A stretch of DNA of 64,000 nt from Escherichia coli (GCF_003334355.1 NZ_QOWP01000004.1); one strand, 5' to 3'; numbered from the stretch's first letter, positions 1 through 6,000 are shown. Program-made: the numbers.

Positions 1-3000
1 GGTTGGCTGAGCGAAATAAGCTCCAGTATTGCCATAATCTAGATAATCAATCAGTTCAGTTAACGCTGTGTAATAGTTTTTATATTTTTCATCAATATTA
101 CGACTGGTAGCGACCATTTCAGGTAACGGTGCCATGCTTTTGAATTTTTTATAATGCGTCGCTGCCTGCGCCAATGTTTTCCTGGCGCTATCGAGCAATT
201 CAACTTTGGCGTTACTTTGTTGATTGGAGGAATCCATCATCATCCGCACCGCTGAACGACTCAGGTTAATGCGCGTTTGCAGCATTAAATCCCAGGTTGA
301 CGTCAGCTCGCCCTGCTGTTCCCGCAATTGATTGGAAACCACAAAGCTCTTCTGGCTATGGTGAAGGGAAGAAAAAAACAGACTGCCGGAAATAAGCTGT
401 AACAGTGCGAATACCCCCAGCACCATTACCAACAGCGTGACTACGCGGATACGGTTAATCATAAGGCACCTTCCTGAAAACAAGTTGATCTCGTTATCGG
501 CAAGGAGGGGGGAAACTTTATTGCTGATGCCACCCGCCGCGAAATTGAAATAAAAAACCCGATGCGCAGATCATCGGGTTCATTTCAATTGAGGAAATCG
601 GGAGAATTACGCCACTTCTGACGCCGCGCTATCTAACAGCGCCATCTCTTCGCTGTTCAGCAGTTTTTCGATGTTCACCAGAATCAACATCCGGTCGCCC
701 AGTGCGCCCAGTCCAGTGAGATATTCTGTTGAAAGCGTCACGGCAAATTCCGGTGCCGGACGAATTTGCTCCGCCGTCAATGAAAGCACGTCTGAGACGC
801 CGTCAACCACGATGCCGACCACCCGCTGTCCGAGATTCAGGACGATAACTACCGTGTTGTCGTTATAGTCCACATCCACCTGGCTGAACTTAATTCGTAA
901 GTCAACAATCGGCACAATAACGCCGCGCAGATTCGTGACGCCTTTGATAAACGCTGGCGTGTTCGCAATCCGTGTTACCTGATCGTAGCCACGGATCTCC
1001 TGCACTTTCAGGATATCAATACCGTACTCTTCATCACCAAGGGTAAATACCAGAAATTCCTGGCCTGACGGCTCGCTGGCCAGCTTTGTTACATTCGTCA
1101 TACCGGTCATATTGTTACCTTTTTACTCATTCAGGCGGCGGTGTTCGCCATACGTTGTTCGCGGTTTATCGCCTGCAAGGCGGAGACATCAACAATCAGT
1201 GCCACGCTGCCGTCGCCAAGAATGGTCGCAGCAGAAATGCCGGGGACTTTGCGATAGTTACTTTCAAGGTTTTTAACTACAACCTGATGTTGACCAATTA
1301 ATTGATCCACCAGCAAGGCGTAGCGGCGACCGCCACTTTGTAAGATCACCACAATTCCTTGGGTAGCTTCGGTTTTCGCGCCCGCGACGTTGAACACTTT
1401 CCACAGTTCGACGATGGGCAGATATTCACCCCGCACTTCCAGCACCCGCTCGCCGCCGGCCAGTGGATGGAGATCGGCTTCACGGGGTTGCAGTGATTCC
1501 ATAACAGCATTCAGCGGCAGAATGAAAACTTCATCCGCAACGCGTACGGACATGCCGTCGAGGATGGCCAGCGTCAGCGGCAGTAAAATGCGGATCGTAG
1601 TGCCAGTACCCTGCTTCGACTGGATTTCAACATGACCGCCCATCTCCTGGATATTACGTTTAACGACGTCCATGCCGACGCCGCGCCCGGAGACGTCGGT
1701 GACCTGCTCTGCCGTGGAGAAGCCTGGTGCAAATATCAGCATTGCAACTTCGTCGTCGCTCATGTTTTCGCTGACAGTCAAACCTTGCGAGGCCGCTTTT
1801 GCCAGAATTCGCTCACGGTTTAGCCCCGCCCCATCGTCGGTCACTTCAATGCAAATGTTGCCGCCCTGATGTTCGGCAGACAGAATTAAATTTCCGACGC
1901 TGTTTTTACCTGCGGCGAGCCGTTTTTCTGGCAGTTCAATACCGTGATCGAGGCTATTGCGTACCAGGTGGGTCAGCGGGTCGATAATGCGTTCTATCAG
2001 GCTTTTGTCGAGTTCAGTAGAACTGCCCACCAGCGTCAGTTCTACCTGCTTGCCGAGTTTTCCCGCCAGATCACGCACCAGCCGGGGATAGCGACTAAAA
2101 ACATATTCCATCGGCATCATGCGAATCGACATCACTGATTCCTGCAAATCACGGGCGTTACGTTGTAACTGCCCCATGCTGGTTATCAAATCACCATGAT
2201 TAACCGGGTCCAGTTCGCTGGAACGCTGGGCAAGCATGGACTGGGTGATAACCAGCTCGCCGACGAGGTTAATTAATTGATCAACCTTTTCTACCGCTAC
2301 ACGGATGCTGGTGGATTCATTGCTGCGCGTCGTTTTTTCCCGCTCCACGCGGCCGGTTGGCGCTTGTTCGGCTGCCAGTTTAAGCACTGGTGGGGTGGAT
2401 ATTTTTGGCGAGACTTCTACTGTTTCAAAGGTAATCTGATCGGCTTCAATCACAAAACAGAGTACCGCTGTGATGTCATCTTCGGCGATGTCGCCCGGTA
2501 ATATTGCCGAGAGCGAATCCGCCCCTTTCACCACGTCAGTTAACGTTGTCAGATGTCCCAGTTCTTCTTCCAGCAGGTCGACTTCCCCGGCCTTCAGGCG
2601 CGAAAGGATAATTCGTCGCGGCGACTGACTGCGACTCTGCTCATCTTGCGGTTCACTTTTGGCAACCACACTTAATCGGGTCACTGCGGATGGCGTTTCG
2701 CCTTTCGCTTCTAATGCCAGTTGACGCAAGGCCTGGCAGATATAATCGAAGCTGGCGGCATCCGGCTCTTGCGACTGTTTATAAGCGTCGAGCTGTTCTT
2801 GCATGATGTCCTTCGTTTCCAAAAACAGATTGATAATGTCGGTGTTGAGTTGCATCTCACCTCGTCTGGCTTCATCGAGCAGGTTTTCCATCAGATGCGT
2901 GGTTTCCTGCAAAACGCTGAAGCCAAAAGTTCCTGCCCCTCCTTTGATCGAGTGGGCAGCCCGAAAGATGGCATTCAATTGTTCGGCATCTGGCGCTTCC

Positions 3001-6000
3001 GGCTGCAAAACCAGCAAATGCTGCTCCATGTCAGCCAACAGTTCGTCCGCTTCATCAAAAAATGTCTGATAAAAATCGCTTATATCCATGCTCACGCTGT
3101 CACCTCGGTTCGGCTGATGGCATTGTGGGAACACTGACCTGTGGTGCAACCTCAGGTTTTTCCAGGGCGCTTACTGGCTCATTCTGGCTTTCGGCGTTTT
3201 CATGCAAAATGGCCTGTTCGGCTTGTTTGTTCAGTACCAGCAGGCTGATGCGACGGTTGACGGCATCATCAGGTCCGCGATCGCTTAAGCGCATCGTTGC
3301 CGCCATGCCGACGACACGTAACACTTTGCCGCTATCCAACCCTCCGACCATCAGTTCGCGGCGGGATGCATTGGCCCGATCGGCAGAAAGCTCCCAGTTG
3401 CTATATCCTTTCTCACCGCTGGCGTAGGGGAAATCATCGGTATGACCTGAAAGGCTAATACGGTTGGGAATACCGTTCAGTACAGGCGCAATGGCGCGCA
3501 GAATGTCGCGCATATAGGGTTCGACATCGGCACTGCCGGTTCTAAACATCGGGCGATTCTGGCTATCGATGATCTGAATACGTAGACCTTCCTGGACCAG
3601 ATCGATTTTGAGATGGGGACGTAACGCCCGCAGTTTCAGATCGGACTCTATCAACTGGTCGAGATCACCCCGCAATTTCCGCAATCGACTTTGCTCCATG
3701 CGTTTTTTCAGCTCTTCGATGTTCGGCTGCTTATTCACTTCCCCCTGGCTTTGGGTGTAATCATCACCACCGCCGGGAATTGGGCTTTCACTATTAGAAA
3801 TGCGATCGCCGCCCGTAACCGCAGTCGCCAGTGGAGTCCGGAAGTACTCCGCAATCTGAATCAGCTCTTTTGGGCTGGAGATGGAGATCAGCCACATCAC
3901 CAGAAAAAAGGCCATCATCGCAGTCATAAAGTCGGCATAAGCAATCTTCCACGATCCATGTGCTGCCCCGTGGCTTTTGGCTTTGCGTCGTTTGACGACA
4001 ATAATCGGATGCGCTTGATTCTTCATGCTTCCTCGGTTGTCGTCTGTTGTTGCGGATTTTTCACCGCACGCACATGCTCTTCCAGTTCAATAAACGACGG
4101 ACGTTCGCTGGAATAGAGCGTTTTGCGACCAAACTCAACGGCGATAGGCGGTGCGTAACCGTTCAGATTAGAAAGCAGAGTGACTTTGACGCACTGCATC
4201 ATTTTGCTGGTTTCGGCGCTTTTCTGACGTAAAACAGTCGCTAATGGGGAAATAAATCCGTAAGCCAATAAAATGCCGAGGAAAGTCCCCACCATCGCAT
4301 GTGCGATAAGCGCACCCAGCTCGGCGGCAGGACGATCGGCTGAACCTAACGCGTGAACGACCCCCATTACAGCCGCAACAATACCAAACGCCGGAAGTGA
4401 GTCCCCGACCAGCGCCAGACTGTTCGCCGGGACTTCTGCCTCGCTTTCGTGCGTCTCAATCTCTTCATCCATCAGGGCTTCGATTTCGAAGGTGTTCATG
4501 TGACCGCTGATAATCAGGCGCAGATAATCGACGATAAAATCAAGCATGACGCTATCCGCGAGGATGCGTGGGTAGCTGGCGAAGATCTCGCTCTCACGGG
4601 GATTTTCAATATCACGTTCCAGCGAAAACATCCCCATCTGCCGCGATTTTGCCATCAACCGATAAAGCAGAGCCAGCAGATCCATATACATTGCTTTGGT
4701 GTATTTGGAGCGACGAAACAGCAACGGCAGCGCCTTCAGCGTGCCTTTAATCGCTTTGCCATTATTGCCGACGATAAACGACCCAATCCCTGCACCGGCA
4801 ATAATCACCAGTTCAGCGGGTTGATAGAGTGCTCCAAGGCTTCCACCGGTCATCAAATAACCGCCGAAAACTGTACCGAGAACAACTAGGTAACCTAATA
4901 AGATAAGCACGACATCATCCTTCCACTGTTGACCATGACAGGATGTTCAGTCGTCAGGCGTTAACGCGCGATTGGGGCAAAAAAAAGCAGCGGTACGTCG
5001 TTACCGCTGCTGGAATGTTGCGCCTCACCGTATCAGTTAAACAGCCTGTACTCTCTGTTCATCCAGCAGTTGTGGGATAATATCGGCAGGATTCTGGGAA
5101 AGTTTACGTCTTTTTACTGCCCTGGATGGCGGTTGACATAAGCTGCAGGCAAAGCTGCCAACAGGCTGGTGAGCGTGGGTAATAAAATTGCCGCCGCAGC
5201 AGTTGCAGCTGGAAAGTTGCAGTAATCCACTTTCAACAAACCGCACCAATGTCCAGGCACGAGTTAATGCCAGCAGTGGTCCTTCTTCTGCTTGTGGGCA
5301 CTGTTCAAGGTATAAACGGTAGGCTTTGATCACCGCATCGACGCCATTACACAAACCGGTTTTCAGTAAAAACTGCCATGCATTACAGAACATCGAAGCA
5401 TGAACGTTTTGTTCCCAGGTCATAAACCAGTCGGTTGAGAATGGCAGCATGCCTTTCGGCGGTGGGCTTCCGCGCAGTTCTTTATAAAGTTTTATCAGGC
5501 GTCCGCGACTTAACTGTGTTTCGCTTTCCAGCATCTGCAAACGAGCGCCCAGGGTGATCAATTCCATTGCCAGCTGAATATCCCGCGCTTCCTGAACAAT
5601 GCTTTTTTCACTCATGATCAGGCCCTTTTCTTGCGCAGCGCTTCTTCAGGCTGATTAACATCATTCAGCAAGCGTGTTGAGAGCATGATGCCGGTATGAA
5701 TTTGCTGGAGATCGTCAACGCGGGAATCTTGCGTCAACTGAGTAATCGTCTGGTGGCTGTCAAAACGGAAGTGACAAACCAGCTGATTGGTTTCTGCCAG
5801 CTTAACCATTTGCGGAAGAGTCAGTGCCGCTAATGTTGTCGCCATTTCTTCATTTATGCCGAGACGAAACATAGCGGACGCTTTGTCCTGAACAATCAGA
5901 CGCTGTGCAAGTAGTAAATATGACAAGTTGATGTCATAAATGTGTTTCAGCAACTCGGAGGTATGCATTATTCCCACCCAGAATAACCAACTTTATTTTT

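Follow-up and report, generated by a model that had tools for sequence, protein, structure and literature searches.

Probable GTG initiation of cheA, otsB and dgcQ, and probably untranslated upstream extensions of eight genes, in an Escherichia coli chromosome segment

The stretch of Escherichia coli DNA analysed in this study (GCF_003334355.1, NZ_QOWP01000004.1; 64,000 nucleotides, hereafter the window) spans the chromosome segment from cheW to hprS. Eight of its genes, namely cheA, otsB, dgcQ, dcyD, fliM, vsr, tcyJ and yedD, possess longest open reading frames (ORFs) that continue upstream of the annotated start codon. A previous sequence-only reading of the window had proposed that the first three of these genes start at GTG codons, that an internal Met of cheA gives the short isoform CheA-S and that the extensions of the other five are probably not translated. 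The results of the current analysis suggest that these are ordinary starts which had been inferred correctly: very probably, GTG initiates cheA, otsB and dgcQ, codon 98 of cheA initiates CheA-S, and all eight upstream extensions remain untranslated. The extensions appear because a mechanically drawn longest ORF runs back to the first ATG, GTG or TTG after a stop. The three GTG starts and CheA-S are already known, being recorded in RefSeq, EcoCyc and the chemotaxis literature.

A match to positions 1000-3500 of the window exists in 5,381 of the 5,426 complete E. coli genomes; over these positions, which take in cheW, cheA and motB, strain PSS-12 (NZ_AP027697.1) shows 100% identity. The Prokaryotic Genome Annotation Pipeline (PGAP) annotation of PSS-12 and the curated K-12 MG1655 record NC_000913.3 were both overlaid on the window, the conversion for the former being w = 205607 - PSS-12 coordinate. 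For all eight genes, lengths and start codons are the same in the window, in NC_000913.3 and in the PSS-12 annotation. Every curated start lies where the sequence-only reading had placed it and none coincides with an upstream ATG; the positions given for the GTG codons of cheA (3095-3093), otsB (9381-9379) and dgcQ (54581-54579), all on the minus strand, are exact in both annotations. Inspection of the ribosome binding sites located a Shine-Dalgarno motif 6-8 nt upstream of each of these three codons. No difference from K-12 is seen in the 120 nt 5' of the start for cheA, otsB, dcyD and vsr, and tcyJ, yedD and fliM have one substitution each. The further statement that the extended ORFs go back to in-frame ATGs holds for otsB, whose longest ORF is headed by ATG 9438, and fails for cheA and dgcQ, both of which are headed by TTG; under a rule that admits ATG only, cheA would be truncated to Met3 and dgcQ to Met7, with no extension of either. 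In a scan of the eight longest ORFs against the NCBIfam profiles, no equivalog profile aligned to any of the extension residues. Profile position 1 coincides with the annotated start for otsB, dcyD, vsr, tcyJ and yedD, and in every gene scanned the profile starts no more than 3 residues from the annotated start.

The gene cheA occupies 1131..3095 on the minus strand and runs from GTG to TGA, encoding the long product CheA-L of 654 amino acids (aa), both in the mapped PSS-12 PGAP annotation and in K-12 b1888, from which the protein differs by 1 aa at the same length. The initiation codon, GTG at 3093..3095 (-), was read directly from the minus strand, which runs ...GAACCGAGGTGACAGC GTG AGC ATG GAT ATA AGC... 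at this point. The predicted product scores 1344.6 bits against NCBIfam NF007835 (cut-off 793) and covers profile positions 1-670 of 670, which identifies it as a full-length member of the enterobacterial CheA histidine kinase equivalog. Conservation across genera was assessed in 120 Enterobacterales loci, obtained by a DNA-pattern scan of species-representative genomes with the codons of a 13-residue stretch; 116 of these loci were readable for the start codon, and 109 were used for the column count. GTG stands at the E. coli start position in 106 of the 116 readable loci. Columns +1 to +3 are invariant and the spacer columns -4 to -2 are variable. Codon 2 changes almost only synonymously (AGC in 90 loci, AGT in 18, ACA in 1), a pattern expected of a Ser codon that is translated. 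Numbering from the GTG gives His48 and Met98, as in the literature (PMC3180615), and the N-terminus of the 654-aa chain of full-length E. coli CheA in PDB 6s1k is the GTG-encoded residue. Upstream of the GTG, as far as the stop, the window holds no in-frame ATG; only GTG 3134 and TTG 3149 are present. This extension (3132..3149, -) lies inside the motB coding region, in another frame, and is probably untranslated. In the other genera the upstream in-frame stop is 10 to more than 60 codons away, and the TTG and GTG candidates of E. coli are not conserved.

The Shine-Dalgarno motif of cheA, GAGG, is fused to the stop codon of motB. The resulting heptamer GAGGTGA (3100..3106, -) contains the motB TGA (3102-3100) and is separated from the cheA GTG by a spacer of 4 nt, an arrangement that has the sequence features of coupled genes. 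Duplex energies for the candidate starts are -7.2 kcal/mol at the GTG, -3.3 kcal/mol at TTG 3149 and -6.3 kcal/mol at GTG 3134. Since the motB stop is located within the Shine-Dalgarno motif of cheA, we infer that initiation of cheA is linked to termination of motB. Ribosomes ending motB would be positioned to begin cheA, and this would constitute translational coupling in the motA-motB-cheA-cheW operon. The heptamer is kept in 99 of the 109 orthologous cheA loci, which suggests that the coupling of motB and cheA is conserved across genera.

The second start of cheA is the ATG of codon 98 (2802..2804, -), which would initiate CheA-S (557 aa). The K-12 annotation holds a second cheA coding sequence (CDS; 1973360..1975033) that begins 291 nt downstream of the cheA start and corresponds to ATG 2804-2802 of the window, in agreement with the internal Met recognised from the sequence. 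CheA is known to be produced from two alternative initiation codons (PMC2716512), so that two CheA proteins are made in E. coli (PMC2716512, PMC3180615); CheA-S is devoid of the first 97 residues, His48 among them (PMC3180615, PMC7750401), and both PMC12350097 and PMC11005335 name cheA(L)/cheA(S) as a standard case of in-frame isoforms. All 114 loci that were aligned have Met at residue 98. A Shine-Dalgarno-like AAGGA (2809..2813, -) is positioned 4 nt 5' of the ATG and is formed by the codons AAG GAC of Lys95-Asp96. The elements of tandem in-frame initiation are all found here, i.e. the ATG at codon 98, His48 upstream of it and AAGGA before the internal start, and a second in-frame initiation at codon 98 via this motif would yield CheA-S without the phospho-accepting His48. 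AAGGA depends on the synonymous codon used for Lys95 (AAG, not AAA) and occurs before the CheA-S start in 5 of 113 cross-genus loci, the other 108 having AAAGA, a weaker match. The arrangement resembles that of infB, which gives IF2 alpha and beta, and similar genes, with which it shares one frame, two starts with a Shine-Dalgarno motif each, and a long and a short product; cheA is itself a founding example of such proteoforms, hence the window offers no new instance. The strain is nearest to PSS-12 and not to K-12; nothing of substance differs between its cheA and that of K-12 (b1888; CheA-L 654 aa, CheA-S 557 aa): the length, the GTG, the 120 nt upstream and the codon-98 ATG are all the same.

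The trehalose-6-phosphate phosphatase gene otsB lies at 8581..9381 (-) and encodes 266 aa from the GTG at 9381-9379, as annotated by PGAP and in K-12. Its Shine-Dalgarno motif, AAGGAGGAG (9388..9396, -), is 6 nt 5' of the GTG. The longest otsB ORF begins 19 codons 5' of the GTG at an in-frame ATG (9436..9438, -) that is probably not a start: the duplex energy is -11.7 kcal/mol at the GTG versus +1.5 kcal/mol at ATG 9438, and the ATG is not conserved. Of the cheA loci, some 30 have otsB as well, and 28 of these were counted. AAGGAGG and GTG are found at the identical position in 20 of the 28; the other readable loci have a GTG within 1-4 codons, except for one (L083) without a nearby upstream GTG. 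Where present, this nearby GTG is directly 3' of AAGGAGG or AGGAGG. In seven genera, no candidate start exists between the otsB GTG and the upstream in-frame stop. The NCBIfam profile NF007560 recognises OtsB with 539 bits (cut-off 327), residues 20-285 of the extended ORF matching profile positions 1-266, which identifies a full-length OtsB with position 1 at the proposed start. The K-12 protein (b1897) is identical over its 266 aa and has the same GTG and the same AAGGAGGAG, no difference being found. The chain of Salmonella OtsB (PDB 6upb) likewise starts at the residue equivalent to the otsB GTG codon, i.e. it has the same first residue as OtsB of the window, and again no difference was found. 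Directly upstream of ATG 9438 is TCTATACTTAC (9439-9449, -), which, on our own reading of the sequence, looks like a near-consensus sigma-S-type -10 element. As ATG 9438 follows this element by 3 nt, the otsBA mRNA would begin at about this codon, which probably coincides with the 5' end of the transcript or precedes it. A scan for the sigma-70 consensus upstream of otsB detected no promoter, as is expected because the promoter would be of the sigma-S type, and a search of the literature for the otsBA transcription start site found nothing usable.

The third gene, dgcQ (yedQ), is located at 52887..54581 (-) and encodes 564 aa from the GTG at 54581-54579, the start given by PGAP and K-12 and favoured by profile NF011955 and by conservation. 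There is no in-frame ATG upstream of this GTG, and TTG 54596 is the only candidate. This TTG (54596-54594) is part of the sequence TTGGGAG (54590..54596, -), in which it overlaps GGGAG (54594-54590), the motif that would serve the dgcQ GTG. The duplex energy is -6.8 kcal/mol for the GTG, at a spacing of 8 nt from GGGAG, -0.1 kcal/mol for the TTG and -3.3 kcal/mol for the ATG of codon 7. The DNA of four other taxa was sampled (Salmonella, two Citrobacter species and Enterobacter). The GTG is present in Salmonella, in a Citrobacter rodentium-like strain, in C. koseri and in Enterobacter mori, with GGGAG or AGGAG 7-8 nt 5' of it in all four. Three of the four relatives have no upstream start candidate; in Salmonella and Citrobacter the TTG is absent, and the 6-15 codons that separate the GTG from the upstream stop include no candidate. 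At the protein level, full-length DgcQ homologues found by a protein search in Escherichia, Citrobacter, Salmonella and Enterobacter share the first residue (M/V-x-H/R-E/D-T), and six DgcQ database entries are still written with V first. The score against NF011955 is 1097 bits (cut-off 408); residues 7-568 of the extended ORF match profile positions 2-563, position 2 corresponding to dgcQ codon 2, which identifies a full-length diguanylate cyclase DgcQ. K-12 dgcQ/yedQ (b1956, NP_416465.2) also has 564 aa and a GTG start, with the proximal ~100 nt upstream identical and 2 aa different; beyond ~100 nt upstream the K-12 sequence differs from the window, and the start is unaffected.

A GTG near an N-terminus is insignificant on its own, and support for these three starts comes from the placement of the Shine-Dalgarno motifs and from conservation across genera. 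All three have the features of GTG-initiated genes, namely a Shine-Dalgarno motif within the canonical distance of about 5-9 nt (cheA 7 nt, otsB 6 nt, dgcQ 8 nt), a GTG that is conserved along with this motif and upstream candidates that are not conserved. The codons, the motifs, their conservation and the match to the curated record are observed directly, and from these we infer that ribosomes use the starts.

The five remaining genes have annotated ATG starts downstream of the starts of their longest ORFs, in K-12 and in PGAP alike, which bears out the view that their extensions are probably untranslated. Only the longest ORF of dcyD is headed by ATG; those of fliM, vsr and yedD begin with TTG and that of tcyJ with GTG. 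The gene dcyD (25490..26476, -) starts at ATG 26476, where position 1 of NF003029 is aligned, and its 32-codon extension to ATG 26572 would cross the tcyJ terminator hairpin (26543-26560) and its T-run. The terminator scan detected the tcyJ-dcyD hairpin on the plus strand only, and the minus-strand hairpin and its T-run were read from the sequence. The Shine-Dalgarno energy is -9.5 kcal/mol at the annotated ATG versus +0.7 kcal/mol at ATG 26572. For tcyJ (26581..27381, -; ATG 27381), with an extension of 19 codons to GTG 27438, the two candidates are separated by NF008426, positions 1-266 of which align from the annotated ATG, and the annotated N-terminus reads as a signal peptide. The yedD start (34894..35307, -; ATG 35307; 22-codon extension to TTG 35373) coincides with position 1 of NF007705, and the annotated protein begins with MKKLAIAGALMLLAGC, to all appearances a lipoprotein signal peptide, its lipobox being LLAGC. 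The extension of fliM (46655..47659, +; ATG 46655) comprises 34 codons inside fliL in another frame; the ATG is 4 nt past the fliL stop, and the TIGR01397 profile begins 3 residues after it. Finally, vsr (57079..57549, -; ATG 57549) has an extension of 54 codons inside dcm, position 1 of TIGR00632 lies at its ATG, and the gene shares 20 nt with the 3' end of dcm. Tandem ATG-ATG codons were seen at yedD (35307-35312, -), araH (10534-10540, -) and yodD (51547-51552, +); the annotation takes the second ATG in all three, a choice that rests mainly on spacing.

The most serious alternative concerns cheA, where the ATG of codon 3 (3087..3089, -) is the only other start of CheA-L that deserves serious consideration, in view of its conservation and of the NF007835 alignment. 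CheA-L might start at this ATG, alone or beside the GTG, with the conserved GTG being untranslated spacer. Several observations speak for this and weigh against the GTG as the sole start. Of 116 loci, 115 have ATG at codon 3. Ten divergent or second-copy cheA genes without the GTG have no other codon at which they could start (L009, L011, L021, L023, L030, L056, L085, L092, L116 and L120; from Yersinia, Rahnella, Erwinia, Pluralibacter and others), and in two of these a stop is present one or two codons 5' of the ATG. Position 1 of NF007835 aligns to Met3, and the same GAGG, with the same -7.2 kcal/mol, serves both codons, such that Shine-Dalgarno energy alone leaves them undivided. Some initiation at the ATG may accompany that at the GTG. 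However, GAGG is 13 nt from the ATG versus 7 nt from the GTG, and a mere spacer is at odds with the invariance of columns +1 to +3 next to three variable nucleotides directly upstream, and with the third-position synonymous change (AGC/AGT) of codon 2. In one locus (L077) Met3 is replaced by CTG, yet the GTG is retained. The curated K-12 record, the numbering used in the field (His48, Met98, 654 aa) and PDB 6s1k all adopt the GTG. We therefore consider a start of CheA-L at the ATG, whether alone or beside the GTG, to be improbable, and its sole use is improbable as well. Two related possibilities, taken jointly, are somewhat less remote and still doubtful. The GTG and the ATG may give a pair of CheA-L proteoforms, the ATG being the ancestral start, a possibility raised because paralogous cheA copies still use it; if so, the GTG would be an acquisition of those loci in which cheA came to be coupled to the motB stop. 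Secondly, the ratio of CheA-S may be tuned by Lys95, in which case the synonymous AAG codon, by providing AAGGA, would raise the CheA-S:CheA-L ratio in E. coli.

GTG is the preferred start for dgcQ too, and here the competing codon is the ATG of codon 7 (54563-54561), which would make the protein six residues shorter. ATG is a stronger initiator than GTG and would be chosen by a caller that admits ATG only. Nevertheless, this reading is very improbable: the Shine-Dalgarno match of codon 7 is weak beside that of the GTG (-3.3 versus -6.8 kcal/mol), conservation covers the GTG and residues 2-5 (x-H-E/D-T), Met7 is replaced by Leu in Salmonella, by Thr or Pro in Citrobacter and by Val in Enterobacter, and the NF011955 profile takes in DgcQ residues from 2 on. 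Even less credible, to the point of being extremely improbable, is the proposal that the longest ORFs are the real genes, starting at TTG 3149 for cheA, ATG 9438 for otsB, TTG 54596 for dgcQ and the upstream candidates of the other five. The frames are indeed open up to these codons. In two genes the Shine-Dalgarno evidence does not favour the annotated start: at tcyJ the energy alone fails to separate ATG 27381 (-6.3 kcal/mol) from the upstream GTG 27438, which has a moderate score of -6.1 kcal/mol, and at fliM a Shine-Dalgarno motif is lacking (+0.3 kcal/mol), the basis of the start being the annotation, the profile and the proximity of the fliL stop. Against the longest ORFs, no Shine-Dalgarno motif accompanies otsB ATG 9438, dcyD ATG 26572 or the dgcQ TTG, and the extensions are not conserved, being closed by stops without a start candidate in other genera where cheA, otsB and dgcQ were compared. 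The NCBIfam profiles pass over every extension, that of dcyD would run through the tcyJ terminator hairpin, those of fliM, vsr and cheA fall within fliL, dcm and motB in a different frame, and the curated annotation disagrees with the longest-ORF starts throughout.

Non-ATG starts account for 8 of the 70 annotated CDS in the window, comprising seven GTG (cheA, motA, otsB, tyrP, uvrC, fliA and dgcQ) and one TTG (uvrY). The norm quoted for such starts is ~14% GUG and ~4% UUG (PMC9841429), and the frequency in the window is no higher than this. Five of the eight, at motA (4910), tyrP (16677), uvrC (21702), uvrY (TTG, 22355) and fliA (28785), were absent from the sequence-only reading. The relevance of these results is one of annotation hygiene only, as ORFs that are run back to the most distant start over-extend many E. 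coli genes; the curated starts could be recovered by a reader without database searches.

Exact identity of the window with PSS-12 was considered and rejected, since no fewer than 14 substitutions and one 1-nt indel separate the two; the indel displaces the coordinates mapped for the last three genes by 1. The single-nucleotide differences are scattered (3638, 5551, 8024, 11068, 33175 and others), and the indel, near 60363, is in the T-run that follows the GGCCGGCATGATGCCGGC hairpin in the drpB-porin intergenic region. Elsewhere in the window, several segments differ from K-12 MG1655. Unlike K-12 MG1655, the window has no IS1 upstream of flhD (5969-6746), and its fliC (29105-30823) encodes 572 aa versus 498 aa, a different flagellin type. 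In the interval between yedK and fliE (37782-39243), yedL is missing and an integrase fragment accompanies a DUF5503 pseudogene that carries a frameshift, and an intact porin gene (~60681-61754) is present where K-12 MG1655 has the yedS pseudogene.

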